This document shows positions 6,388-40,051 of a DNA stretch of 64,000 nt, piece after piece. The notes below the pieces were generated by a model. The model made no database searches. It saw only the letters and a list, made by a program, of their open reading frames with translations, and was not told the DNA's origin. Each line of letters opens with the position of its first letter. Position 1 is the first letter of the stretch. A program made the translations under genes and the position numbers. The stretch covers positions 18,711-82,710 of the forward strand of contig NZ_DLHQ01000050.1 of assembly GCF_002483305.1 (NCBI RefSeq), read 5' to 3'. The stretch comes from Brevundimonas sp. UBA7664. Its GTDB lineage: Bacteria; Pseudomonadota; Alphaproteobacteria; Caulobacterales; Caulobacteraceae.

Positions 6388-6810
6388 TGCGCGCTTCTTA
6401 GGGGGTGAGGGGCGAGGGGGGAAGGGATGCCGTGTCGCGCCGGACAGGCTCGGCGAGCGTCCGCCCCGATGCTGTCTTCTCGCCCCTGATCATCGCGCCC
6501 CTTCCGACCCCTGACCGTGTCATCCCGCCCCCTGTCCCGACCTCCTGCGCCCACCATTCCGTCGCCTGCGACCGAAGCTGACGTATCGATGTGTCTCTAT
6601 GTACAACGGCCACAGGGGCAGGATTTTTGACGGTTCGAAACCCATCACGGCATCGGCATCCGCTTCGGCGGGCGGGTCTGGCGGCGATCTGCCGCAGGGT
6701 GGCTCGACTGTGCGGAAATTTCGGGATTCCACGGTGTACTCTCGCCCCCTCCGGCCGCTGCGCGGAATCGGGGGATGACGCCGGCCGAAACGCCCGCTAG
6801 CGTCAGCGCC

Positions 6811-9069
6811 ATGCGCAACAAACTCCTCGCCTCCACCCTGTTCCTCGCGGCCCTGTCGCCGTTCACCGCCGTGATGGCGCAAACCGCGGACCCGGCGGTC
6901 CTGACACCCGAACGGGTGTTCGCCAATCCGTCGCTGGCCGGACCGGTGGCGCGGGGCGTCAGCCTGTCGCCGGACGGCGAGCTGGTCGCCTTCCTGCGCT
7001 CGCGCGAGGACGACGTCGATGTGCTGGACCTGTGGGCCGCGCCGACCGGTGAGGGCGAGCCGTTCAAGCTGATCGACGCGCGGGCCCTGGTCCCCGACGC
7101 CGGCGAACTGTCCGAGGCCGAGAAGGCCCGACGCGAGCGGATGCGGATCAGCCAGCGCGGCGTGGTCGAATATTCGTGGGACCAACAGGGCCGCTACATC
7201 CTGGCCCCGCTGGAGGGCGACATCTTCCTGGCCAGCCGCGAGGGCGGGGCGGTGCGCCGCCTGACCGAGACCCCGGCCGACGAGATCGACGCCAAGGTCT
7301 CGCCTCAGGGCAATTTCGTCTCCTTCGTGCGCGACCAGGACCTGGTCGTGCTGGACCTGAACGGCGACCGCGAGACCGCGGTCACCACCGACGGCGAGGG
7401 GCTGATCACCTGGGCCACGGCCGAGTTCATCGCCCAGGAAGAGATGGACCGGGACACCGGCTACTGGTGGAGCCCGGACGAGCGCTACATCGCCCTGCAG
7501 CGCACGGACGAGAGCACGGTCGACATCGTGCCCCGTCTGGACATCACTGGCGGCGGCGCCTCCGTGGTCGAGCAGCGCTATCCGCGCGCCGGCCGCCCCA
7601 ATGCCGTGGTCGAGCTGTATGTCCACGATCGTCAGGGCGGCGAGCGGGTCAAGGTCGACCTGGGCTCGAATCCCGACATCTACCTGGCCCGCGTGAACTG
7701 GTCGGCGGACGGCCGCACCCTCTATGTCCAGCGCCAGTCGCGCGACCAGAAGACCCTGGACCTGCTCAGCGTCGATCCGGCCACGGGCGCGTCACGCGTG
7801 ATCGTGACCCAGCGGTCCGACGCCTGGGTGTCGCTGAACAATGACTTCCGCGCCCTCGAGAATGGCGACTTCATCTGGGCCTCGGAAGAGAGCGGGTGGA
7901 AGCATCTATATCTGTACAATCGCGACGGCCGCCGGCTGCGCGCGATCACGAGCGGCGAGTGGCCGGTCAAGTCGCTGGACGGGGTCAACCAGCAGACCGG
8001 CGAGGTCTTCTTCACCGCCTCGATGCGCGACGGCCGCGAGCTGCCGATCGAACAGCAGATGTTCCGCGCCAGCCTGCGCCGGACCGTGACGCCGACGCCG
8101 GTGACGCCCGCCGGCGGCTGGTGGTCGGCCTCGATGAACCGCACGGGCACGGCCTATGTCGGCAACTACACCGACATGGATACGCCGGCGCAGTCGGGCC
8201 TCTATCGCGCCGACGGGACCTTCGTGCGCTGGATCGAGGAGAACCGGCTGGACGCCGACCATCCGATGTATCCCTACGTCTCCCGGCGTGGCGAGACGAC
8301 CTTCGGCACGCTGGAAAGCCATGGCGAGACCCTGGTCTGGCAGATGACCACGCCGCCGGGCTTCGATCCGTCGAGACAGTATCCGGTGGTCATGCAGGTG
8401 TATGGCGGGCCGGGCGGCGGCGGGGTCAAGAAGGGCTGGCAGTCATCGACCAGCCAGCTGCTGACCGAGGCCGGCTATATCGTCTTCCGCCTCGACAACC
8501 GCGGCGAGGGCCTGCGCTCGGCGGCGTTCAAACAGGCGCTGTATCTGAAGATGGGTCAGCCCGAGATCGAGGATCAGGTGCTGGCGGCGAACTATCTGCG
8601 GTCGCTGCCCTATGTCGCCGACGACCGCATCGCCATGATGGGCTGGTCCTATGGCGGCTTCATGAGCCTGATGGCCCTGACCGAGCCGGACATGGGCCTG
8701 GCCTCGGCCATCGTCGGCGCGCCGCCGACCGAGTGGAGCCTGTACGACACCCACTACACCGAACGCTTCATGTCGACGCCCGAGGCGAACGTCGCAGGCT
8801 ACGCCGCCTCGGACGCCATTCCGCGGCTGCCGAACCTGACCGGGCGGATGCTGCTGCTGCACGGCATGGCCGACGACAACGTCATCCTCGAGAACACCAC
8901 GCGGGTGATGGACGCCATGCAAGCGTCGTCCATCCCGTTCGAACTGATGCTCTTCCCCGGCCAGCGCCACGGCGTGCGGGGCAATGAAAGGCAGCTGATG
9001 CAATGGCGGACGTATCTGGACTTCCTCGATCGCACGATCGGGACTCGAGCGCCGGCAGCACAGGACTGA
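6811..9069 (+). CDS. S9 family dipeptidyl peptidase IV-like exported peptidase
   Basis: Signal peptide, DPPIV N-terminal propeller (EEMDRDTGYWWSPD), nucleophile GWSYGG, HGMADDNV, and catalytic His in GQRHG. Confidence 0.93.
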   Translation: MRNKLLASTLFLAALSPFTAVMAQTADPAVLTPERVFANPSLAGPVARGVSLSPDGELVAFLRSREDDVDVLDLWAAPTGEGEPFKLIDARALVPDAGELSEAEKARRERMRISQRGVVEYSWDQQGRYILAPLEGDIFLASREGGAVRRLTETPADEIDAKVSPQGNFVSFVRDQDLVVLDLNGDRETAVTTDGEGLITWATAEFIAQEEMDRDTGYWWSPDERYIALQRTDESTVDIVPRLDITGGGASVVEQRYPRAGRPNAVVELYVHDRQGGERVKVDLGSNPDIYLARVNWSADGRTLYVQRQSRDQKTLDLLSVDPATGASRVIVTQRSDAWVSLNNDFRALENGDFIWASEESGWKHLYLYNRDGRRLRAITSGEWPVKSLDGVNQQTGEVFFTASMRDGRELPIEQQMFRASLRRTVTPTPVTPAGGWWSASMNRTGTAYVGNYTDMDTPAQSGLYRADGTFVRWIEENRLDADHPMYPYVSRRGETTFGTLESHGETLVWQMTTPPGFDPSRQYPVVMQVYGGPGGGGVKKGWQSSTSQLLTEAGYIVFRLDNRGEGLRSAAFKQALYLKMGQPEIEDQVLAANYLRSLPYVADDRIAMMGWSYGGFMSLMALTEPDMGLASAIVGAPPTEWSLYDTHYTERFMSTPEANVAGYAASDAIPRLPNLTGRMLLLHGMADDNVILENTTRVMDAMQASSIPFELMLFPGQRHGVRGNERQLMQWRTYLDFLDRTIGTRAPAAQD

Positions 9070-9100: not shown

Positions 9101-10684
9101 GTGATGCGTTTCAACAGGATGGGGCTCGGCGCCCTTGCCTTGGCGGCGTCCGTGGCGCTGGGCGGCTGTATTGTTATCGAGGCGCCAGACCGCGACATGG
9201 TCTGGGCCGAGGCCAGCCCGGCCTGGACTGGCGACAGGGCGGGCGAGCCCGATCGCTCGGAAGCCCACCTCGCGGGCAACACGCCGGCGCAGGTAGCCAC
9301 CAACAGCGTCTTGGCCTGGGGCAGGCACGACCCGGACGCGGTTGTGCTGTGGGCTAGTGGATCAGGTATTTCGGGAATGCCCGTCCTTCTCAAGGACAAC
9401 ATCGAAACCGCCGACATGCCGACCACGGCCGGGTCGCTGGCGCTGGTCGACAACGCGCCTGGCCGGGACGCGCCGCTGGTCGCCCGTCTGCGCGAGGCCG
9501 GGGCCGTGATCCTCGGCAAGACCAATCTGTCGGAATGGGCCAATATCCGGTCGTCGAACTCGACCAGCGGCTGGAGCGCCGTAGGCGGGCTGACGCGCAA
9601 CCCCCATGCGCTGGACCGCAACACCTGCGGCTCGTCCTCGGGCAGCGGAGCGGCGGTGGCGGCGGGACTGGCGCCGGCGGCGATCGGGACCGAGACGGAC
9701 GGGTCGATCACCTGCCCGGCGGCCATCAACGGCATCGTCGGCTTCAAGCCGACGGTCGGTCTGGTCAGCCGCACCCACATCGTGCCGATCAGCCATTCCC
9801 AGGACACGGCCGGACCGATGACGCTGACGGTCGAGGACGCGGCCATCGTGCTGACGGTCATCGCCGGCAGCGATCCGCTGGATCCCGCGACGGTCGAGGC
9901 CGACGCGCGCAAGGTCGATTATCGCGCGGCGCTGGACGCGGGGTCGCTGCGCGGGACGCGGATCGGGGTGATGCGCTGGCCCTCGGGCTACAACGCCGCG
10001 ACCCTGGCGGTGTTCGAGACCAATCTTCAGGTGCTGCGCGACGCCGGCGCGGTGCTGGTCGACATCACCGAGGCGCCGTCGGACGAAGGGGCGATGGGCG
10101 CGGCCGAACTGACGGTGCTGCTGACCGAGCTGAAGGTCGACCTGAACGCTTATCTGGCCTCGACCCGGCCCGACCAGGTGCGGACCCGGACCCTGGCCGA
10201 CGTGATCGCCTTCAACGAAGCGGAGCCGCGCGAACTGGCCCTGTTCGGGCAGGAGCTGTTCCTGCTCGCGGAGCAGACCGGCGGCCTGGACGATCCGGCT
10301 TACATCGAGGCGCGGGCGACGTCGCTGCGGCTGGCCGGGGCGGAGGGGATCGACAAGCTGCTGCGCGAGCATCGGGTCGTCGCCCTGATCGCGCCGACGA
10401 CCGGCCCGGCCTGGACCACGGATGTGGTCAACGGCGACCATTACGGCGGCGCGGTGTCGACCATGCCGGCCATCGCCGGCTATCCGCATCTGACCGTGCC
10501 CATGGGCTTCGTCCGCGGCCTGCCCGTCGGTATGAGCTTCATCGGCGGCCAGTGGGAGGACGCCCGGATCCTGTCGCTGGGCTACGCCTTCGAGCAGCTG
10601 ACGCAAGCCCGTCGCAGCCCCACATTCGCCCGGACCGTGGACGTGATGGACGAGACGGCGCCGCTGCTGGCCCCCGTGCACTGA
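9101..10684 (+). CDS. Amidase-signature family enzyme (possible lipoprotein)
   Basis: PVLLKDNIET, GKTNLSEWAN, CGSSSGSGAAVAAG, GTETDGSITCPA; LGGC lipobox-like N-terminus. Confidence 0.93.
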   Translation: MMRFNRMGLGALALAASVALGGCIVIEAPDRDMVWAEASPAWTGDRAGEPDRSEAHLAGNTPAQVATNSVLAWGRHDPDAVVLWASGSGISGMPVLLKDNIETADMPTTAGSLALVDNAPGRDAPLVARLREAGAVILGKTNLSEWANIRSSNSTSGWSAVGGLTRNPHALDRNTCGSSSGSGAAVAAGLAPAAIGTETDGSITCPAAINGIVGFKPTVGLVSRTHIVPISHSQDTAGPMTLTVEDAAIVLTVIAGSDPLDPATVEADARKVDYRAALDAGSLRGTRIGVMRWPSGYNAATLAVFETNLQVLRDAGAVLVDITEAPSDEGAMGAAELTVLLTELKVDLNAYLASTRPDQVRTRTLADVIAFNEAEPRELALFGQELFLLAEQTGGLDDPAYIEARATSLRLAGAEGIDKLLREHRVVALIAPTTGPAWTTDVVNGDHYGGAVSTMPAIAGYPHLTVPMGFVRGLPVGMSFIGGQWEDARILSLGYAFEQLTQARRSPTFARTVDVMDETAPLLAPVH

Positions 10685-10700
10685 GACGACCCGAGAGACA

Positions 10701-10725
10701 GGAACCGGCCCCAAGGGCGGCCGTT
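10701..10725 (+). promoter_or_regulatory. SigT/EcfG (general stress) type promoter
   Basis: GGAAC-N16-CGTT directly upstream of the ATG at 10734. Confidence 0.6.
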
Positions 10726-10733
10726 GGAGGCCG

Positions 10734-11213
10734 ATGGAAAAGCAGTTCGTCAAATTCGCCACGGCGACGGCCAAGGTGGCCGGCAAGCCCTGGACCTTTA
10801 TCGCCTGCCTGGCGATCGTGCTGACCTGGGCCGTCTCCGGTCCGGTCTTCAACTTCAGCGAGACCTGGCAGTTGATCATCAACACCGGCACGACGGTGAT
10901 CACCTTCCTGATGGTGTTCCTGATCCAGAACACCCAGAACCGCGACGGCGCGGCGATCCACGCCAAGCTGGACGAACTGGTGTTCGCGGTGAAGCAGGCT
11001 GATGACCGCTTCATCGGCATCGAACACCTGACCGAGCTCGAACTGGATGCGATCCTGAGGGAGGTCGAGGGCCGCGGCCTGGCCGTGCAGGCGGGCAAGC
11101 CGGCCCGCGCCCTTCCCGGCAAACGCGCGCGGGCGGAAGCGATCGAGGACGCGCAGCCGAAGAAGGCCAGCCCGCGTCGCACCGCTGGAACGAAGACGAG
11201 GACCAAGTCGTGA
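10734..11213 (+). CDS. Low-affinity iron permease (Fet4-like) family small membrane protein
   Basis: WAVSGPVFNFSETWQLIINTGTTVITFLMVFLIQNTQNRDGAAIHAKLDEL signature. Confidence 0.9.
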   Translation: MEKQFVKFATATAKVAGKPWTFIACLAIVLTWAVSGPVFNFSETWQLIINTGTTVITFLMVFLIQNTQNRDGAAIHAKLDELVFAVKQADDRFIGIEHLTELELDAILREVEGRGLAVQAGKPARALPGKRARAEAIEDAQPKKASPRRTAGTKTRTKS

Positions 11214-11485
11214 CAGGCCTCGTCGCCAACGTCGTCGGCACCCTCGCGGCCCTGTGTTCGATCACCAGTTTCGCCCCGCAGATGATCAAGATCTGGAAGG
11301 AGCGTGACGCATCGGCGGTGTCGCTGAAGACCTATTCCCTGACGGTGACCTGCTTCGTGCTGTGGACGGCCTATGGCGTTCTGACCACGGCCTGGCCGGT
11401 CACCATCGCCAATGCCTGCGCCCTCGTCATGGCCTCCGGGGTGCTGGCGATGAAGTGGCGGTTCAGCGACACCCGGCCCCGCTGA
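11210..11485 (+). CDS. SemiSWEET / PQ-loop sugar transporter
   Basis: SFAPQMIKIWK...SLKTY...LWTAYG...WPVTIAN; three TM helices; GTGA overlap with the upstream gene. Confidence 0.88.
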   Translation: MTGLVANVVGTLAALCSITSFAPQMIKIWKERDASAVSLKTYSLTVTCFVLWTAYGVLTTAWPVTIANACALVMASGVLAMKWRFSDTRPR

Positions 11486-11487
11486 GC

Positions 11488-13335
11488 TCAGCGGGCGGCG
11501 GCCGCCTGGGCGGCGTGGACGAGGGCGATGATCCGGTCCGCGGCCTCGTCGGCCGAGCAGGCGGCGGCGTCGATGCGCAGCTCCGGCGCCTCGGGCGCCT
11601 CATAGGGGCTGTCGATGCCGGTGAAATGGCTCAACTGGCCGGCCCGGGCCTTGGCGTAGAGCCCCTTGACGTCCCGCGCCTCGGCCACCGCCAGCGGTAC
11701 ATCGACGAAGACCTCGACGAACTCGCCGGGCTCCATCAGCTCGCGCGCCATGCGGCGTTCCTCGCGGAAGGGCGAGATGAAGGAGACCAGCACGATCAGG
11801 CCCGCGTCCGTCATCAGCCGCGCCACCTCGGCCACCCGGCGGACGTTCTCGACCCGGTCGGCGTCGGTGAAGCCGAGGTCGCGGTTCAGGCCGTGGCGGA
11901 CATTGTCCCCATCCAGCAGGACCGAATGCAGGCCCTCGGCGAGCAGCCGCTGCTCGACCTGGTTGGCGATGGTCGACTTGCCAGCGCCGGACAGGCCGGT
12001 GAACCACAGCACCAGCGGCGACTGGCGTTTGAGGGCCGCGCGGTCGGCCCGGCTGACGCTCAAGGCCTGCGGCCGGACATTGGCCGACCGGCGAAGGGCG
12101 AAGCGGATCATGCCGGCCCCGGCGGTCTCGTTGTTCATCCGGTCGATCAGGATGAAGCCGCCGAGATCGCGGTTGGCGGCATAGGGTTCGAAGGCGACGG
12201 GGGCGTCCAGCGCCAGGGTGCACAGGCCGATGTCGTTCAGCGTCAGGGTCGGGGTGGCCAGGCGCTCGCCGGTATCGACATTGACCTTGTGGCGCAGGTC
12301 GCTGATCCGGGCCGGGACCGTGGTCGCGCCGAGCTTGAGCCAGTAGGACCGGCCCGGCAGCAGGGGGCGGTCCGACATCCACACCAGATGAGCCTCGAAC
12401 TGGTCCGCGACCTGAGGCGGGGCGCCGGCGGCGGCGATCAGGTCGCCGCGCGAGACGTCGACGTCCGGGGTCAGGGTCAGGGTCACGGACTGGCCGGTCC
12501 GGGCCTCGTCGAGGTCCCCGTCCAGGGCGACGATGCGTTCGATCGCGGCGCTCACGCCCGACGGCAGGATGCGGACGGCGTCGCCGGGCCGGGCGACGCC
12601 GGCCACGATCCGGCCCGCGACTCCACGGAAGTCCGCGTTGGGCCGGTTGACCCCCTGCACTGTCATTCGCAGCGGGCCGGACGTGGTCTCGGCCAGGCTG
12701 ACTGTCTGGAGATGCGCCATCAGACCCGGACCGGTGTACCAGGATGTCAGGTCGCCCGCCGCCGAGATGTTCTCGCCCGAACGGGCACAGGTCGGGATGG
12801 CGATGATATCGGTCAGGCCGATCGGGTCGGCGAAGGCGCGGTAGTCATCGACGATCGCGTCGAACCGGTCCTGCGACCCCTCGACCAGATCCATCTTGTT
12901 GACCGCCAGCACGACGCGCCGGACCCCCAGCAGGGCCAGCAGCCGGCTGTGCCGCCGCGTCTGGGTCAGCACCCCCTTGCGGGCGTCGATCAGCACGATG
13001 GCCAGGTCGGCCGTCGAGGCGGCGGTGACCATGTTGCGGGTGTACTGCTCGTGTCCCGGGGTGTCGGCGAGCACGAAGCGGCGCTCGCCGATGTCGAAGA
13101 AGCGATAGGCGACGTCGATGGTGATGCCCTGCTCGCGCTCGGCCGACAGGCCGTCGACGAGGAAGGACAGGTCCAGCGCGCCGTCGAGATCGGGCAGGGC
13201 CGCGATCTGATCGGAGGGAATGGCGCCGGCGTCGTACAGCAGGCGGCCGATCAGGGTCGATTTGCCGTCGTCGACCGAGCCGCAGGTGATCAGCCGGACG
13301 ATCTCGCGGGGGCCGGTATCGTGAACGGGGGCCAT
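11488..13335 (-). CDS. cysNC: Bifunctional sulfate adenylyltransferase subunit 1 / adenylylsulfate kinase (CysNC/NodQ-like)
   Basis: [22 protein letters not shown] and NKMD GTPase motifs; C-terminal [32 protein letters not shown]. Confidence 0.95.
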
Positions 13336-33346: not shown

Positions 33347-33988
33347 TCAGGTTTCGCTGACCCTGGCGGCCTTGATCCCTGCACGATTTGCTCGATCCCT
33401 CAGAACGTCCAGAACCCGGGCGAAGGCGAGGTCCCTGGAACGCAGCAGGACGAGCAGGTGGTAGATGAGATCCGCCGCCTCCTCCGTCAGCTCCGCCACA
33501 TCCCCGGCCGCGCCTGCGAGGGCGACTTCCACGCCCTCCTCCCCCACCTTCTGGGCGGCGCGCTTCGGGCCTTGCGCCAGCAGGCGGGCGGTCCAGCTTT
33601 CAGCCGGGTCCGCGGCGGCGCGTTCGGCGATGGTCGCCTCCAGCCGGGCGAGTCGACCGAGACCCGGCGCATCCTCCTCGCCGAAACAGCTGATGCGGTT
33701 CAGGTGGCAGGCGTTGCCGACGGGACGGACCTTCAGGACCAGCGCATCGGCGTCGCAGTCGGGGGTGATCGATACGACGTGAAGCCGGTCGCCCGAGGTC
33801 TCGCCCTTGCGCCAGCGGCGGCCGCGCGAGCGGGAGAAGAAGGTGGCTTCACCGGAGGCGATCGTCTCGTCGAGGGCGGCGCGATCCATATAGGCCAGGG
33901 TCAGGACCTGCAGGGTGCCGGCGTCCTGGACGACGACGGGGATCAGGCCCTGGCCCTTGGCGAAGTCGAGTTGGTCGGAATCGATCAC
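33347..33988 (-). CDS. hisIE: Bifunctional phosphoribosyl-AMP cyclohydrolase / phosphoribosyl-ATP pyrophosphatase
   Basis: GLIPVVVQD...WRKGETSG...DCDADAL...CH, followed by AAQKVGEEGVEV...EEAADLIYHL. Confidence 0.95.
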   Translation of the reverse strand: MIDSDQLDFAKGQGLIPVVVQDAGTLQVLTLAYMDRAALDETIASGEATFFSRSRGRRWRKGETSGDRLHVVSITPDCDADALVLKVRPVGNACHLNRISCFGEEDAPGLGRLARLEATIAERAAADPAESWTARLLAQGPKRAAQKVGEEGVEVALAGAAGDVAELTEEAADLIYHLLVLLRSRDLAFARVLDVLRDRANRAGIKAARVSET

Positions 33989-34752
33989 AGTCTCATTTCC
34001 TGTCCGGCGTCCGAAAGGAACGCCTTGAGATCGGGAATGGCCAGGGCCCCGGTGTGGAAGACGCTGGCGGCGAGGGCGCCGGAGACGTCGGCCTGTTCGA
34101 ACACATCGCGGAAATGCGAGGCCGCGCCGGCGCCGCCCGAGGCGACCAGCGGGATGGTCAGACGGGCGCGGGCGGCGGCGAGCTGGGCGATGTCATAGCC
34201 GCGACGGACGCCGTCCTCGTCCATGCAGTTGAGCACGACCTCGCCGGCGCCGAGGGCCTGGGCCTCGACGATCCAATCAAGGGTGCGGCGGCCGGCCCCG
34301 CGGCTGGCGGTCGGGTCGCCGGTGTACTGGTGCACCAGCCAGTCGTCTCCGGCGCGTTTGGAGTCGACGCCGACGACCACGCACTGGCTGCCGAGGCGTT
34401 CGGCCATTTCGCCGATCAGGTCCGGGCGTTCGAGGGCGGGGGAGTTGATCGAGACCTTGTCGGCGCCGTGGTCGAGGCAGCGGGCGGCCTGATCGACCGA
34501 GCGGATGCCGCCGGCGACGCTGAAGGGGATGTCGAGCAGGCGGGCGATGTTACGGACCCAGCCGTAGTCGAGCGTGCGGCCCTCGGGGCTGGCGGTGATG
34601 TCATAGAAGACTAGTTCATCCGCGCCCTGATCGCGGTAACGGGCGGCGAGCTCGGCGGCGTCGCCCATGTCCGCGTGGCCCTGGAAGCGGACGCCCTTGA
34701 CCACCCGGCCGTCCTTGACGTCGAGACAGGGGATGATGCGGCGGGCCGTCAT
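33985..34752 (-). CDS. hisF: Imidazole glycerol phosphate synthase cyclase subunit
   Basis: MTARRIIPCLDVKDGRVVKG, DKVSINS, ASGGAG, ALAASVFH. Confidence 0.95.
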   Translation of the reverse strand: MTARRIIPCLDVKDGRVVKGVRFQGHADMGDAAELAARYRDQGADELVFYDITASPEGRTLDYGWVRNIARLLDIPFSVAGGIRSVDQAARCLDHGADKVSINSPALERPDLIGEMAERLGSQCVVVGVDSKRAGDDWLVHQYTGDPTASRGAGRRTLDWIVEAQALGAGEVVLNCMDEDGVRRGYDIAQLAAARARLTIPLVASGGAGAASHFRDVFEQADVSGALAASVFHTGALAIPDLKAFLSDAGQEMRL

Positions 34753-35474
34753 GCCGCGAGCGCTTCTTCGAGCGTAAAGCGGTTCTCGTAGAGGGCGCGG
34801 CCGACAATGGCTCCGTCGCAGCCGAGGGCGGCGGCGGCGGTCAGGTCGGCGACCGTGGCCACACCGCCGGAGGCCTGGACCTTCAGATCGGGACGGCGGC
34901 GGATGATCTCGCCCAGCAGGTCGAGGTTGGGGCCGGTCAGCGCGCCGTCGCGGCCGACGTCGGTGACCAGCAGGTGGCGCGCGAGGGTGGGCGGATAACG
35001 GTCCAGGGCGGTCCACAGATCGACCCCCGCCGCCTCGGTCCAGCCCTTGAGGGCCGGGACCCAGCGGTCGCCGTCGGCCTTGACGTCGATGGCCAGGGTG
35101 ATGCGATCCGGACCGAACCGGCGCAGCCAGTCGGCCACGGTCTCCGGCTGTGACACAGCGAGAGATCCGACCACGACCCGGGCGACACCGGCGTCGATCA
35201 GGGCGGCGACATCGTCGGCGGAGCGGACCCCGCCGCCGGACTGGATGCGGATGTCGATGGCGCGGGCGAGGTCGCCGATGAGGGCGTGCTGGACCGCGCG
35301 CCCGGCTTCGGCGCCGTCGAGGTCGACGATGTGGGCCCAGGTCGCGCCGGCGGCCGCGAAGGCGGCGAGGCGGGCGGCGGGCTGGTCATCGTAGCGGGTG
35401 ACGGCGTCGAACCGGCCGTGCATCAGCCGCACGCAGATCCCGTCTTTCAGGTCGATGGCGGGATAGACGATCAC
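34749..35474 (-). CDS. hisA: ProFAR isomerase
   Basis: IVYPAIDLKDGICVRL, HIVDLDGA, QSGGGVRS, TDVGRDGALTGPN; GTG start. Confidence 0.93.
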   Translation of the reverse strand: MIVYPAIDLKDGICVRLMHGRFDAVTRYDDQPAARLAAFAAAGATWAHIVDLDGAEAGRAVQHALIGDLARAIDIRIQSGGGVRSADDVAALIDAGVARVVVGSLAVSQPETVADWLRRFGPDRITLAIDVKADGDRWVPALKGWTEAAGVDLWTALDRYPPTLARHLLVTDVGRDGALTGPNLDLLGEIIRRRPDLKVQASGGVATVADLTAAAALGCDGAIVGRALYENRFTLEEALAA

Positions 35475-36073
35475 GCGGGAAGCTCCAGGAAATTGCGCAG
35501 GATGCGGGCGCCGGCGGCGGCGGAGCGCTCGGGGTGAAACTGGCAGCCCCAGCGGTTGGCGCTGCGGACCATGGCGGGCACCGGGCCGCCGTAGTCGGCG
35601 CGGGCAAGGGTCGCCGAGCCGTCCGGGCAGACGAAGCCGTGGACGAAATAGGCGTATGCGCCGTCTTCGATCCCTTCGAGCAGGGGATCGCCCCGATCGG
35701 CCGTCAGGCGCGACCAGCCCATGTGCGGCACGGTCAGGCCCTTGCCGGGCTCCAGCCGACGGACGGCGCCGGGGATCAGGCCGAGCAGGGGGATGGGCTC
35801 GCCCTCCTCGCTGGTCTCGAACAACAGCTGCTGGCCGAGGCAGACGCCGAGCAGGGGACGCGGGAAGGCGCGGATCGGTTCGACGAGGCCGAGCGCGGTC
35901 AGCCGGGCCATGGCGTAGGCGGCCGCGCCCACGCCCGGCAGGATCAGCCGTTCGGCTTCCGTGACCGCCAGAGGGTCGTCGGTCAGGCGGACGATCGCGC
36001 CCAGCCGCTCCAGGGCGAACCGGACCGAGGCGGTGTTGCCGGCGCCGTAGGCGAGGACGGTGACCTCGGTCAC
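35471..36073 (-). CDS. hisH: Imidazole glycerol phosphate synthase glutaminase subunit
   Basis: YGAGNTASV, LPGVG, LGVCLGQQ, PHMGW, QFHPERS. Confidence 0.95.
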   Translation of the reverse strand: MTEVTVLAYGAGNTASVRFALERLGAIVRLTDDPLAVTEAERLILPGVGAAAYAMARLTALGLVEPIRAFPRPLLGVCLGQQLLFETSEEGEPIPLLGLIPGAVRRLEPGKGLTVPHMGWSRLTADRGDPLLEGIEDGAYAYFVHGFVCPDGSATLARADYGGPVPAMVRSANRWGCQFHPERSAAAGARILRNFLELPA

Positions 36074-37506
36074 AGCACGCCCTTGGTGCTGGGCACGGCG
36101 TCGCCCTCGATGCGGATGGCCTGACGCAGGGCGCGGCCAAAGGCCTTGTAGACGGCCTCCGTCTTGTGGTGGTCGTCGTCGCCGGTGACCGAGACATGGA
36201 CGGCCGCGCCCATGGCTTCGGCCAGCGAGCGGAAGACGTGGGCCGTCAGATCGGTGCGGTAGTCGCCGATGAAGGGGGTCGAGAAGGTCCCCTCGAAAAC
36301 CGGGAAGGGTCGGCCGGAGAGGTCGATGGAGACGCTGGCGTTGGCCTCATCCATGGGCAGGACGAAGCCGTAGCGGGCGATGCCGCGGCGTTCGCCGAGC
36401 GCCTGCTTCAGGGCCTGGCCGAGGGCGATGGCCGAGTCCTCAATGGTGTGGTGCGGGTCGGTGTGCAGGTCGCCCTCACAGGCCAGCCGCAGGGAGAAGC
36501 CGCCGTGGGCGGCGACCTGCTCCAGCATGTGGTCGAAGAAGCCAACGCCGGTGGCGATGGAGACCGGGCCGGTCGCGTCGAGGTCGACGGCGCAGACGAT
36601 GCGGGTCTCCTTCGTGTCGCGGACGGCCTCGCCAGTGCGGTGGACACGGCCGGATGCCGCGCCGAGACCGAGGGCGGCGAGGAGCCGGTCGTTGACCCCG
36701 GCCCTGGCGGAGACGGGCAGTCGCAGCCGGTCGCCGGCGCGTTCGGCGGCGAGGCCGAACCGGGCGAGCGCGGTGAGGACGGCGTCCGGGTCGGTGGGCC
36801 GGGCCATGATCACGGGGCCGAAGCCAGGCTCGATCTTCATGTCGCGGGAGAGTGCCTTGCTCAGCCGCTCGCGCTCGGACCGGACGAGGGCGATGCGCGC
36901 CGTCGTCTCCATCATCCGCGAGGGGTCAAGCGCCTGCAGGGCGAGGCGGATGGAGACCTCGGGCAGGGCGTAGGGCTCAAGCACAGAGGCGAGACGGGCG
37001 AGCGTTTCCGGCTGGCCGAGGGCGGCGCCGACGCGGGCGCCGGCCAGGCCATATGCGAGCGAGAGGCTACGCAGGACGATCAGGTTGGCGTGGTCCTGGA
37101 GGACGGTCGTGGCCGATGGGGCGTCCGCGAACTCGGCCATGCCTTCATCGATGACCAGCAACGCCGGGGCGACCCGTTCGGCCATTTCGGCCACCGCCTC
37201 GGGCGAGCCGAGGGCGCGGAGGATGACGACACCGGTCGCCGCGCCGGCGGCGGGCGGAGCGTAGAGGGCGGCGAGGGCGCGATACGGCTCGGCGTCGGGG
37301 GCCTCGACGCGCTGTCCGTCACGGGCGGCGAGGCGGAAGACCAACTCGAGGCCGTGGGTCAGGCCGCGGACCGGCAGAACGCTTTCGGCGCTCACGCCAT
37401 AGATCTGGGCCATGCGGGCGGCCAGCGCGCGCGGCTCGGCCGGATATCGGTCGAGGCCGTCGCCGCCGGCGACCAACGGGGGGAAGGGGGCGGGCAGGTT
37501 GTTCAT
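36070..37506 (-). CDS. hisB: Fusion of a degenerate HisC-like aminotransferase domain and imidazoleglycerol-phosphate dehydratase
   Basis: C-terminal about 190 aa: TKETRI, TGVGFFDHMLEQ, DPHHTIED, PMDEA, DDHHKTEAVYKAFGRAL, PSTKGVL. N-terminal about 285 aa HisC-like (DRYP, IDEGM, LRSLSLAYGLAGARVG) but without the PLP lysine. Confidence 0.88.
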   Translation of the reverse strand: MNNLPAPFPPLVAGGDGLDRYPAEPRALAARMAQIYGVSAESVLPVRGLTHGLELVFRLAARDGQRVEAPDAEPYRALAALYAPPAAGAATGVVILRALGSPEAVAEMAERVAPALLVIDEGMAEFADAPSATTVLQDHANLIVLRSLSLAYGLAGARVGAALGQPETLARLASVLEPYALPEVSIRLALQALDPSRMMETTARIALVRSERERLSKALSRDMKIEPGFGPVIMARPTDPDAVLTALARFGLAAERAGDRLRLPVSARAGVNDRLLAALGLGAASGRVHRTGEAVRDTKETRIVCAVDLDATGPVSIATGVGFFDHMLEQVAAHGGFSLRLACEGDLHTDPHHTIEDSAIALGQALKQALGERRGIARYGFVLPMDEANASVSIDLSGRPFPVFEGTFSTPFIGDYRTDLTAHVFRSLAEAMGAAVHVSVTGDDDHHKTEAVYKAFGRALRQAIRIEGDAVPSTKGVL

Positions 37507-38810
37507 GCGCCGGTCCTCAGATCCGCGGCGCGGGCGTGGGCTTCCAGTCCCTCCAGCCGGGCGAGGCGGGCGGCGACGGGCGCGAGGGCGGCGGCCCCGG
37601 CCTCGGTCACGACCTGGACCGACATGGTGGTCATGAAGCTGGCCGTGGTGACGCCGCCCATGGTGCGCGCGGCGCCGTCGGTGGGCAGGACGTGGCTGGG
37701 GCCGGCGGCGTAGTCGCCGAGGGTCTCGGCCGCGAAGCCGCCGACGAAGACGGCCCCGGCGGCGGAGATGCGGCTAACCAGTTTGTCGGCGTCCACGGTC
37801 TGCAGGGCGAGGTGCTCCGGCGCATAGAGGTTGGCGACCTCGCAGGCCTCGGCGACGTCGCGGACGCGGATGGCGCGGCCTTCGGCGAGGGAGGCTCGGG
37901 CGATGTCGGCCCGGGGCAGGGTCGCGAGTTGCTGCTCCACCTCGGCGAGGATGGCGTCGATGTTGGCCCGGCTTACAGAGACGAGGATGACCTGGGCGTC
38001 GGCGTCGTGCTCGGCCTGGCTGAGCAGGTCGGCGGCGGCGATTTCAGGGTCGGCGTCACGGTCGGCGATGACCAGCAGTTCGGACGGACCGGCGGGCATG
38101 TCGACGGCGGGGCCGCCGGGCAGGTTCGACGCCTGCTTCTTGGCCTCGGCGACCCAGGCGTTGCCGGGGCCGAACAGCTTGTCGCAGGGTTCGATGACGC
38201 CGTCGTCCAGTTCGGCGCCGAAGGTCAGGGCGGCGATGGCCTGGGCGCCGCCGATCAGCCAGAGCGCATCGAGTCCGGCCTCGGCCGCGGCGAAGATCAT
38301 CGCCGGGTGCGGCTCGCCCGCGGCCGAGGGCGGGGTGACGGCGATGCGGCGGCCGACTCCGGCGACACCGGCGGGGATGGCCAGCATCAACAGGGACGAG
38401 AACAGCGGCGCCGAACCGCCGGGGACATAGAGGCCCGCCGAGCGCAGGGGACGCCAGACGAGGCGTGAGCGGACGCCGGGAATGATCTCGACGTCGGGGG
38501 TGTCCTCCGGTCGTGTGGCCTCGTGGAAGATGCGGATGTTCTCGGCCGCCATGCGGATGGACCGGGTGTCGGCGGGCCGCAGGGCGTCGCGGGCGGCAGC
38601 GACGCGGTCGGGCGTCAGCTCCAGCCGGCGCGGTGCGGCGCCGTCCAGTTTCAGGCTCCAGTCGGTCACGGCAGCGCCGCCGCGCGCGCGGACGTCGTCC
38701 ATGATCTCGCGCACCGTATCGGTCACGCGCGACTCGGTGCGGCGGCGGGGACGGGCCAGGGCCTCAAGGCGGCCGGCGGCGTCGAGGGTGCTCCAGTCGA
38801 TACGTCGCAT
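37503..38810 (-). CDS. hisD: Histidinol dehydrogenase
   Basis: AGLYVPGG, GGAQAIAAL, GPGNAWV, DMPAGPSE, DLLSQAEHD, APEHL, GDYAAGPSHVLPT. Confidence 0.95.
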   Translation of the reverse strand: MRRIDWSTLDAAGRLEALARPRRRTESRVTDTVREIMDDVRARGGAAVTDWSLKLDGAAPRRLELTPDRVAAARDALRPADTRSIRMAAENIRIFHEATRPEDTPDVEIIPGVRSRLVWRPLRSAGLYVPGGSAPLFSSLLMLAIPAGVAGVGRRIAVTPPSAAGEPHPAMIFAAAEAGLDALWLIGGAQAIAALTFGAELDDGVIEPCDKLFGPGNAWVAEAKKQASNLPGGPAVDMPAGPSELLVIADRDADPEIAAADLLSQAEHDADAQVILVSVSRANIDAILAEVEQQLATLPRADIARASLAEGRAIRVRDVAEACEVANLYAPEHLALQTVDADKLVSRISAAGAVFVGGFAAETLGDYAAGPSHVLPTDGAARTMGGVTTASFMTTMSVQVVTEAGAAALAPVAARLARLEGLEAHARAADLRTGA

Positions 38811-39691
38811 CACATCATCTTCTCGATCGGAAGGACGAGGATGGCCGAGGCGCCGGCGGCCTTGAGCCGTTCCAGCGTCTCCCAGAAGACGGCCTCCTGA
38901 CAGACGGCGTGGACAGCGACGGCGTCGTCGCGGCCGGACAGGGGCATAACCGTTGGCGCGCCGGCGCCGGGCAGGATGGCGGTGATTTCGGCCAGGGCCG
39001 AACGGGGGGCGTTCAGCATGACGTATTTGGCGCCCTGCGAGGACACCACCCCGGCCATGCGCTCGACGATGCTGTCCAGCAGGTGCTGCAGGCCGGCCTC
39101 GGGCGCGACGGGCGATTTGATCAGCACCGCCTGGCTGTCCAGCACCGTCTCCTTCGCCGCCAAGCCGTTGGCCTCCAGCGTCGCGCCGGTCGAGACCAGG
39201 TCGCAGATAGCGGAGGCGAGCTTCAACCGGGGCGCCACCTCGACCGCGCCGCGCATGGTGACGATGTCGGCGGAGACGCCCTGCGCATCCAGATAGCGGC
39301 GCAGGATTTTCGGATAGGAGGTGGCGATGCGCAGACCGTCCAGCGAGGCCGGGCCGTCGTAGGCCAGGGTCGGGGGGATGGCGATCTTGAGGGTGCAACG
39401 GCCGAAGCCCAGCGGCATCAGCACCTCGGCCGTCGGGCCGCCGTTGCGGACCTCCTCCAGCACATTCTCGCCGACGATGCCGAGGTCGCAGACGCCGTCT
39501 GCGACGAATGTGGGAATGTCGTCGTCGCGGACGCGCAACAGGTCGATCGGGTAGTTTTCCACCCGATAGAGCAGGTCGTTGTTGCCCTTGACCACGCGCA
39601 GGCCCGCGTCGCGGACGAGGTCGAGGCTGCGGTCGGACAGGCGGCCGGATTTCTGGACGGCGATACGCAGCCGCCCCTGGACAGTGCTCAT
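38810..39691 (-). CDS. hisG: ATP phosphoribosyltransferase, long form
   Basis: IAVQKSGRLS, RVRDDDIP, IATSYP, GAVEVAP, ICDLVSTGATL, plus the C-terminal regulatory domain. Confidence 0.96.
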   Translation of the reverse strand: MSTVQGRLRIAVQKSGRLSDRSLDLVRDAGLRVVKGNNDLLYRVENYPIDLLRVRDDDIPTFVADGVCDLGIVGENVLEEVRNGGPTAEVLMPLGFGRCTLKIAIPPTLAYDGPASLDGLRIATSYPKILRRYLDAQGVSADIVTMRGAVEVAPRLKLASAICDLVSTGATLEANGLAAKETVLDSQAVLIKSPVAPEAGLQHLLDSIVERMAGVVSSQGAKYVMLNAPRSALAEITAILPGAGAPTVMPLSGRDDAVAVHAVCQEAVFWETLERLKAAGASAILVLPIEKMM

Positions 39692-39701
39692 GACGGGGTA
39701 C

Positions 39702-40019
39702 TCAGACTTTCGGGTTCAGACGGTCCAGCACCAGGCGGTAGCCCTGATGCGGCATCTCTTTCAGGAAGCGGGCGACCCGCACGACGGTGGTCGGGCTGGC
39801 CTGGGCCTCGGCGGCGATCTCGCGATAGGACTTCCCGCCGGCGTCGAGCAGGCGGGCGACCTCCCAGCGCTCGGCGAAGGCCCGCACCTCGGACGGGGTG
39901 CACAGGTCGGCCAGGAAGGCGTCGACCTCGTCCCGCGTGTTCAGCGACAACAGGGCGTCATAGAGGGCGACGCGGCTGTTGGCCGTGGCGGCGGCGTTGC
40001 GGGGGAGGGTATCGGTCAT
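39702..40019 (-). CDS. YerC/YecD TrpR-related regulator
   Basis: FLADLCTPSEVRAFAERWEVARLL...SYREIA...SPTTVVRVARFL. Confidence 0.88.
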   Translation of the reverse strand: MTDTLPRNAAATANSRVALYDALLSLNTRDEVDAFLADLCTPSEVRAFAERWEVARLLDAGGKSYREIAAEAQASPTTVVRVARFLKEMPHQGYRLVLDRLNPKV

Positions 40020-40023
40020 GGCG

Positions 40024-40051
40024 CGTTCCACTATGGTGTAACGCTGGAACG
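40024..40051. promoter_or_regulatory. Inverted repeat at the head of the his operon (candidate operator)
   Basis: CGTTCCA-N14-TGGAACG, 5 nt upstream of the TrpR-like ATG. Confidence 0.5.

Follow-up and report, generated by a model that had tools for sequence, protein, structure and literature searches.

The histidine operon of Brevundimonas sp. UBA7664 contains a gene in which a degenerate HisC domain is joined to imidazole-glycerol-phosphate dehydratase (IGPD, HisB). The operon lies in a 64,000-nucleotide stretch of contig NZ_DLHQ01000050.1 (positions 18,711 to 82,710, hereafter the window), and the gene encodes a protein of 478 aa (Table 1). Its N-terminal domain lacks the lysine that forms the Schiff base with pyridoxal 5'-phosphate (PLP) in HisC, as well as most other PLP and substrate contacts, and is under purifying selection. 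We propose that the only IGPD of this bacterium carries a dead HisC domain derived from a bifunctional ancestor, and that this domain is most likely, though by no means certainly, kept as a structural part of the HisB particle.

Loss of catalytic and substrate-binding residues from the HisC domain

A preliminary description of the window had read the gene as a shortened HisC-like domain without the Schiff-base lysine, occupying the hisC slot of the operon and fused in frame to an intact IGPD. This reading holds in all its parts: the two domains share one open reading frame (ORF), which is placed between hisD and hisH. The N-terminal domain has the fold of fold-type I PLP enzymes, as seen from PF00155, which matches aa 102-235 with 54.4 bits (cut-off 19.7), and from Foldseek, which paired the domain with HisC structures (including 7szp, 1gew and 1fg3) at a probability of 1.00 and TM-scores (target) of 0.62-0.71 (0.65-0.71 for the three named). 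Its best sequence matches in the PDB were the HisC proteins of E. coli and Klebsiella (phmmer, E 6.5e-18). On the hisC equivalog model TIGR01141, whose cut-off is 276.55, the fusion protein reached only 101.4 bits.

The phmmer alignment pairs aa 113-230 without gaps with residues 177-294 of E. coli HisC (LRTLSKAFALAGLRCG versus LRSLSLAYGLAGARVG). Lys214, the Schiff-base lysine of the T-[LF]-S-K motif, stands opposite Leu150 (codon CTC), and VADEAY stands opposite VIDEGM, which is the change from DEAY to DEGM that had been described before; Asp184, Ser213 and Arg222 are retained in the window. We compared 54 dead domains from Brevundimonas, Asticcacaulis and uncultured Caulobacteraceae with 17 intact fusions, whose origin is given below. 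The Lys214 column holds lysine in all 17 intact fusions and in none of the 54 dead domains (L18 F15 Y11 G4 S2 W2 M1 R1). Among the 28 Brevundimonas species sampled, 27 have leucine at this position and one has methionine. No lysine column is conserved in more than 54% of the 54 dead domains, and two domains have no lysine at all; the window domain has only two, K218 and K224, both in its variable, non-conserved C-terminal part. On sequence grounds a substitute Schiff-base lysine is excluded, and PLP binding through another lysine, which would have spoken against the preliminary description, is not expected.

The losses extend well beyond the lysine. The domain comprises 288 aa, compared to about 355-360 in intact relatives, and is therefore about 70 aa shorter. 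Deleted are an N-terminal arm of ~45 aa with the substrate motif NExP, and an internal strand and helix bearing the SPxNPTG (Asn157) loop, as judged from the alignment and from the predicted secondary structure compared with that of the intact fusion P0211. The PTF (Tyr110) segment, Asp85 and the C-terminal substrate arginine (Arg335) are lost in the dead clade as well; the substrate-binding residues (NExP, Asp85, Tyr110/PTF and the C-terminal Arg) reach at least 90% conservation among the intact fusions, whereas the dead clade lacks them. Regarding the PLP contacts, Tyr187 is replaced by methionine in the window, where the SPxNPTG loop is deleted, and Tyr55, a contact from the partner subunit, is present in the window but in only 19 of the 54 members of the dead clade. 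Asp120, Glu121, Ser147 and Ser149 are retained in the dead domains, and 7 of the 54 have Pro or Gln instead of Arg222. Because Lys214, the Asn157 loop and the substrate-binding residues are lost, the domain is, as far as its sequence can tell, catalytically dead and incapable of transamination, and it is probably unable to hold PLP. Since the substrate site is gone, channelling by the dead domain itself would be unlikely.

The IGPD half

The C-terminal half has the features of a complete IGPD. PF00475 matches aa 319-460 with 195.5 bits (cut-off 27), and the HisB model NF002111 is passed with 242.4 bits (cut-off 231). The Mn-binding motifs (D.HH..E twice, FDHM) and the C-terminal PSTKG are present; H326, H352, H353, E356, H423, H446, H447 and E450, as well as P472-G476, are invariant in 45 relatives. 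Foldseek matched this half to the structures 6fwh, 8qax, 4gqu and 2f1d with TM-scores (target) of 0.87-0.93. Enzymatic activity and assembly into a 24-mer are to be expected from its being the sole IGPD in an otherwise complete pathway.

Transaminase and phosphatase genes outside the operon

The genome is 99.95% complete, and the fusion gene encodes its single IGPD. By tblastn, hisG, hisD, hisA and hisIE are likewise present in single copies, all in the operon. The missing transaminase and histidinol-phosphatase genes were found where the preliminary description had placed them, outside the operon: a standalone hisC on contig C3 (TIGR01141, 303.4 bits) and an IMPase-type histidinol-phosphatase gene, HisN, on contig C53 (287 bits), both above their cut-offs. 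Profile searches of the genome revealed neither a HAD-type nor a PHP-type histidinol-phosphatase, and TIGR01261 had no match. That the dead domain itself might act as a histidinol-phosphatase was weighed and dismissed, as a HisN above cut-off exists and the domain bears no resemblance to a phosphatase.

A standalone hisC above cut-off is present in the window's genome (G000) and in 8 of 8 other genomes checked, including genomes with an intact fusion. The standalone gene made the fused copy redundant, and this redundancy is the obvious cause of the decay of the fused aminotransferase. Three genomes of the window's GTDB genus (G171, G227 and G214; 96-100% complete) have neither IGPD nor hisD, hence apparently no his operon, and are likely histidine auxotrophs; they keep a standalone hisC of ~300 bits. 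Its retention in genomes without IGPD and hisD suggests that a second role protects the standalone hisC from loss. A gene context of aromatic amino acid metabolism was sought around the standalone hisC and was not found.

Conservation of the dead fusion

Loss of the lysine and the fusion itself are conserved. More than 120 protein clusters with 81-95% identity share the length and both domains of the window protein, and the best 80 related loci are from Brevundimonas only. Together with the leucine in 27 of the 28 Brevundimonas species, this speaks against a sequencing error, in agreement with the preliminary description. Across 200 sampled Caulobacteraceae genomes, four genera have the domain joined to IGPD, namely the window's genus, Asticcacaulis and two uncultured genera. 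All 18 Asticcacaulis genomes carry such a fusion. For the window's genus, 17 of 18 genomes match, with 15 fusions devoid of the lysine, one degraded fusion (G081) and one intact, lysine-bearing fusion (G195). The proteins form a length series of 551 aa (intact), 500 (Asticcacaulis), 478 and 467 (Brevundimonas) and 416 (G010).

The genome with the shortest fusion, G010 of an uncultured Caulobacteraceae, carries an additional full hisC besides the further-deleted fusion gene (locus L183, G010:C6:60000-76000; 10576-11643 and 6643-7875, respectively). The extra hisC is situated directly after hisIE, scores 289.5 bits and is 52% identical to the standalone HisC of the window's genome. Another protein, P0396 (491 aa), has a HisC part without the lysine and an IGPD part without the D.HH..E metal-binding motifs and may be a fully dead paralogue.

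Purifying selection on the dead domain

The fusion gene and the standalone hisC were extracted from the same 28 Brevundimonas species, giving 378 pairs. The median nonsynonymous divergence (dN) was 0.249 for the dead domain, 0.143 for the true HisC and 0.085 for IGPD; at nonsynonymous sites the dead domain thus changes 1.8 times faster than the true HisC. We then pooled seven phylogenetically independent Brevundimonas sister pairs and obtained a dN/dS ratio (omega) of 0.195 (bootstrap 95% confidence interval (CI) 0.165-0.23) for the dead domain, 0.126 (0.10-0.15) for the true HisC and 0.047 (0.03-0.065) for IGPD. Omega of the dead domain exceeds that of the true HisC of the same genomes only about 1.5-fold and is far below 1. 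In close Asticcacaulis pairs it was 0.02-0.09, about equal to that of IGPD.

About 50 columns of the dead domain are near-invariant across genera, and most of them are common to intact HisC (RG, R58, DE, S.S, G..G...G, E..R....L). Two columns are fixed in the dead clade only. His51 is a histidine in 51 of the 54 dead domains, the 17 intact ones having D, E or Q; Glu177 is a glutamate in all 54, and the 17 intact domains have P, A or Q. The dead domain is under purifying selection and not freely decaying, as its conservation in Brevundimonas, Asticcacaulis and other Caulobacteraceae also indicates. Having lost a catalytic residue while its sequence is held by purifying selection across species and conserved across at least four genera, it is a pseudoenzyme domain.

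Origin from intact HisC-IGPD fusions

Intact fusions were found by a search with the Asticcacaulis N-terminal domain and by inspection of all proteins of the representative library. They are 528-577 aa long and contain all catalytic motifs (LKTLSKAWGLAG, DEAY, SPNNPTG and NESP). Two of them, P0211 and P0217 (551 aa), match the whole TIGR01141 model above its cut-off (277.5 and 278.3 bits), and their IGPD half and linker are of the same type as in the window fusion. The hosts are Blastomonas marina (P0217), Allosphingosinicella, Sphingosinicella, Sphingomonas (including LY54), Robiginitomaculum (P0338) and Caulobacteraceae represented by metagenome-assembled genomes; hundreds of fusions of ~552 aa occur in Allosphingosinicella, Sphingosinicella and Sphingomonas. 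At NCBI the intact fusions are named 'histidinol-phosphate transaminase'.

Lysine-bearing fusions are also present in one species of the window's own GTDB genus (G195, genus g1) and in one of a sister genus (G069, genus g8), and the one of G195 occupies the same slot, YerC-hisG-D-[C-B]-H-A-F-IE, as the window gene. Because such intact fusions exist, one of them in the very same operon slot, fusion preceded inactivation, and the window domain is a degenerate orthologue of a bifunctional enzyme catalysing two consecutive steps.

The trees of the two halves tell the course of inactivation differently. In the tree of the N-terminal domain, dead and intact forms are split by a single branch (support 100/99) after a long stem, a split that could be inflated by shared acceleration. 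In the IGPD tree, dead and intact forms are intermixed, and at least two changes are forced through the starred branches; an approximately unbiased (AU) test on this tree did not reject a single dead clade (p = 0.061). If the IGPD tree is right, with lysine-bearing forms nested among dead ones, His51 and Glu177 would have arisen more than once, which would be strong evidence of adaptation.

The fusions of G195 (locus L120) and G069 (locus L121) are near-identical and mutually closest (100/99) although they belong to different genera, and they adjoin the dead forms on the IGPD tree. Their near-identity across genera suggests that the whole operon has passed from one Caulobacteraceae genus to another.

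Possible roles of the dead domain

The preliminary description had offered a scaffold, a channel or a regulator, and which of these applies is a matter of inference. We favour a structural or assembly role. AlphaFold2 (AF2) modelled the whole fusion chain with a predicted local distance difference test score (pLDDT) of 89.3 and a predicted TM-score (pTM) of 0.85; the intact fusion P0211 reached 91 and 0.89. The N-terminal domain is modelled with confidence as a compact fold, the pTM values being only suggestive of a fixed arrangement of the two domains. IGPD is a 24-mer of 432 symmetry whose N-terminal sheet faces outward (PMC10978614), so a domain attached to the N-terminus could decorate the particle.

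The ancestral protein would have been a bifunctional HisC-IGPD catalysing two consecutive steps, from imidazole glycerol phosphate to imidazole acetol phosphate (IAP) and from IAP to histidinol phosphate; Sphingomonadales and some Caulobacterales retain it in intact form. In the lineage of Brevundimonas and Asticcacaulis, a standalone hisC would have rendered the fused aminotransferase redundant. The Schiff-base lysine, the N-terminal arm, the Asn157 loop and the substrate-binding residues may then have been lost in a burst of change, after which the fused domain would have come under renewed purifying selection. At present the standalone HisC would transaminate and the HisN-type phosphatase dephosphorylate, and the fusion would serve as HisB only, its dead domain being required for the IGPD 24-mer to fold, to stay soluble or to assemble. 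HisC enzymes, as fold-type I enzymes, are dimers with their active sites at the interface; in a similar manner, the N-terminal domains may pair as dimers on the outer surface, at the twelve two-fold axes. In the vacant cofactor cleft, His51 and Glu177 may serve as a filling, a closure or a bridge.

Several observations weigh against this structural role. The omega of 0.2 could in part come from selection against misfolding only, in a domain whose excision would take with it the start of an essential gene. In G010, ~75 aa of the N-terminal domain are deleted, RG..H and DE among them, and the domain of G081 lacks RG..H, DE and EP; at least these two lineages can thus do without large parts of it. 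In P0342, RG..H and EP are lost and the lysine column holds a proline; as all three have decayed further, the domain is not indispensable in every background. Finally, His51 and Glu177, two invariant polar residues in the region of the old active site, would be as compatible with a binding site as with a structural plug.

This last point leads to a possible but clearly less probable explanation, in which the domain was neofunctionalised and its old cleft rebuilt into a PLP-independent site for a metabolite (histidine, histidinol phosphate or IAP) or a metal that regulates IGPD. The fixation of His51 and Glu177 at former active-site positions in the dead clade only would agree with it, as would the retained Asp120, Glu121, Ser147 and Ser149 and the long stem followed by IGPD-like constraint in Asticcacaulis, since functional shifts typically show such a burst and then stasis. 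However, Arg222 is not maintained throughout the dead clade, G010, G081 and P0342 lack His51 and Glu177, and the Lys214 column is free to hold L, F, Y, G, S, W, M or R, leaving part of the cleft unconstrained; moreover, profile searches of the protein matched no known ligand-binding family. A new site made up of His51, Glu177, Asp120, Glu121, Ser147 and Ser149, whether a metabolite or metal sensor controlling IGPD or a dock of the standalone HisC for IAP, has a modest probability.

Taken separately, docking is rather improbable. Here the dead domain would recruit the standalone HisC, as a heterodimer or by surface contact, and IAP would be handed over directly. As two successive steps were united in the ancestral fusion, keeping both activities close together may have brought a benefit, and both the dimeric nature of HisC with its interface active sites and the conservation of the dead domain would suit such a contact. 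Yet the dead domain and the standalone HisC share only about 25-30% identity, and the N-terminal arm, which in HisC contributes to the dimer interface, is deleted.

We give slightly less credit still to the view that the domain is a relic without a role, slowly shrinking and persisting because the essential IGPD is translated through it. The graded lengths from 551 to 416 aa with their in-frame deletions would be explained in this way, and so would the faster nonsynonymous change relative to the true HisC; the omega values of Brevundimonas and especially of Asticcacaulis are, however, far below neutrality, and the ~50 near-invariant columns and the confident compact AF2 fold are at odds with mere persistence. 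That the domain is a working aminotransferase, using another lysine or non-covalently bound PLP or pyridoxamine 5'-phosphate (PMP), is hardly credible, as Asp184, Ser213 and, in most members, Arg222 are retained but neither a conserved lysine nor the Asn157 loop, Tyr187, the N-terminal substrate motif, Asp85 or Arg335 is left.

Comparison with known systems

The closest relatives of the window protein are the intact HisC-IGPD fusions. They share with it the domain order, the linker type (…ALG/AFG…R.(A/G)E..R(D/E)TKET.I) and, in G195, the operon slot, and the IGPD halves of both kinds fall into one well-supported group of the IGPD tree (90/95). Unlike the window protein, they keep Lys214, DEAY, SPxNPTG, NExP, Asp85 and Arg335 and pass the hisC cut-off. 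By order, linker and operon position the window protein thus belongs to the bifunctional HisC-IGPD class, whereas only one of its halves is predicted to be competent. With the HisC enzymes of E. coli and Klebsiella (1FG3, 1GEW, 1GEX, 1GEY and 7SZP) the window domain has in common the fold and Asp184, Glu185, Ser213 and Arg222; it differs in lacking Lys214, Tyr187, Asp85, the N-terminal arm and the Asn157 loop, and in being fused to IGPD.

An IGPD placed C-terminally behind another domain of the histidine pathway is also found in bifunctional HisNB (NF003937), which occurs in Gammaproteobacteria and other phyla. There, however, the partner is a HAD phosphatase, and the window protein matches only positions 166-355 of the model, with 270 bits compared to a cut-off of 443. 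On the IGPD half, NF003937 nevertheless outscores every monofunctional HisB model, which opens the possibility that the fusion originated in a hisC-hisNB operon through loss of the phosphatase part. Like pseudoenzyme domains in general, which are dead homologues of enzymes retained as scaffolds or regulators, the window domain combines loss of a catalytic residue with a preserved fold and purifying selection. It is distinct in being covalently joined to the enzyme of the preceding step and in having relatives that form a graded series from active to dead to partly deleted.

A review of histidine gene fusions lists hisD, N, B, H, F, I and E as fused genes and does not include hisC (PMC10138114); hisC is not among the fusions of PMC1963479 either, and a recent network analysis of IGPD mentions as bifunctional proteins only IGPD+HPP. 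Our literature search turned up neither a HisC-IGPD fusion nor a HisC pseudoenzyme, and the intact fusions are known only as database entries. The present data add hisC to the his genes known in fusions. The series from a working fusion through a dead but conserved domain to one that is partly deleted, with the operon slot unchanged throughout, offers a tractable model for the origin of pseudoenzyme domains and for their entrenchment once a second gene copy provides redundancy. The data also correct the annotation of proteins named either 'HisB' only or 'histidinol-phosphate aminotransferase/IGPD'; taken literally, the second name leads pathway reconstructions to assign a transaminase activity that the protein cannot have.

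Further fusions of other architecture were observed. P0335, P0344, P0347, P0353, P0387 and P0392 (778-827 aa) have a HisC-like region at the C-terminus, and P0529 (719 aa) combines PF00155 with PF00815 (HisD) and PF00475. Other hisC fusions, for instance with hisD, may therefore exist.

The his operon and its surroundings

The operon reads YerC-hisG-hisD-[fusion]-hisH-hisA-hisF-hisIE, all on the minus strand (Table 1). Neighbouring genes overlap by 1-4 nt, the hisD stop and fusion start as ATGA and the fusion stop and hisH start as GTGA, which fits translational coupling. The assignment of the fusion start codon is secure: a GAGG Shine-Dalgarno sequence precedes the ATG, the start is conserved in Brevundimonas, and in Asticcacaulis the corresponding ATG directly follows a stop codon. 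Near the domain boundary, the window sequence has no ATG, GTG or TTG in frame.

Table 1. Coordinates of the fusion gene, its domains and altered positions, and the other genes of the his operon (positions of the window).
Feature	Position	Strand	Evidence
Pseudo-HisC/IGPD fusion gene, 478 aa, sole hisB of the genome	36070..37506	-	ORF and domain matches
N-terminal HisC-derived pseudo-aminotransferase domain (predicted), aa 1-288	36643..37506	-	PF00155, TIGR01141, Foldseek, omega
IGPD domain, aa 289-478 plus stop codon, intact	36070..36642	-	PF00475, NF002111, Foldseek
Leu150 codon CTC, aligned with the PLP Schiff-base Lys (E. coli HisC K214)	37057..37059	-	
DEGM, aa 120-123, replacing DEAY; Asp184/Glu185 retained, Tyr187 gone	37138..37149	-	
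His51 codon CAC, at the position of E. coli Glu86, adjoining the lost imidazole-binding Asp85	37354..37356	-	
Glu177 codon GAG, at the position of E. coli Ala241	36976..36978	-	
hisD	37503..38810	-	TIGR00069, 441.9 bits
hisG, long form	38810..39691	-	TIGR00070 and TIGR03455
YerC/YecD TrpR-like gene, first in operon	39702..40031	-	TIGR02531, 66.6 bits
hisH, GTG start	35471..36073	-	TIGR01855, 192 bits
hisA	34749..35474	-	ORF; single copy by tblastn; orthologues in same order
hisF	33985..34752	-	ORF, tblastn, gene order of relatives
hisIE	33347..33988	-	NF002747, 240 bits

The YerC/YecD gene directly upstream of hisG recurs at this site in G010, G195 and the Asticcacaulis genome G091 and is a candidate regulator of the his operon. 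In the window's genome (G000), a second HisH/HisF-like pair is encoded on the minus strand of contig C39 (16796-18056). The two proteins are 38% and 28% identical to the operon copies, and they may form an imidazole-glycerol-phosphate-synthase-like enzyme for another pathway.

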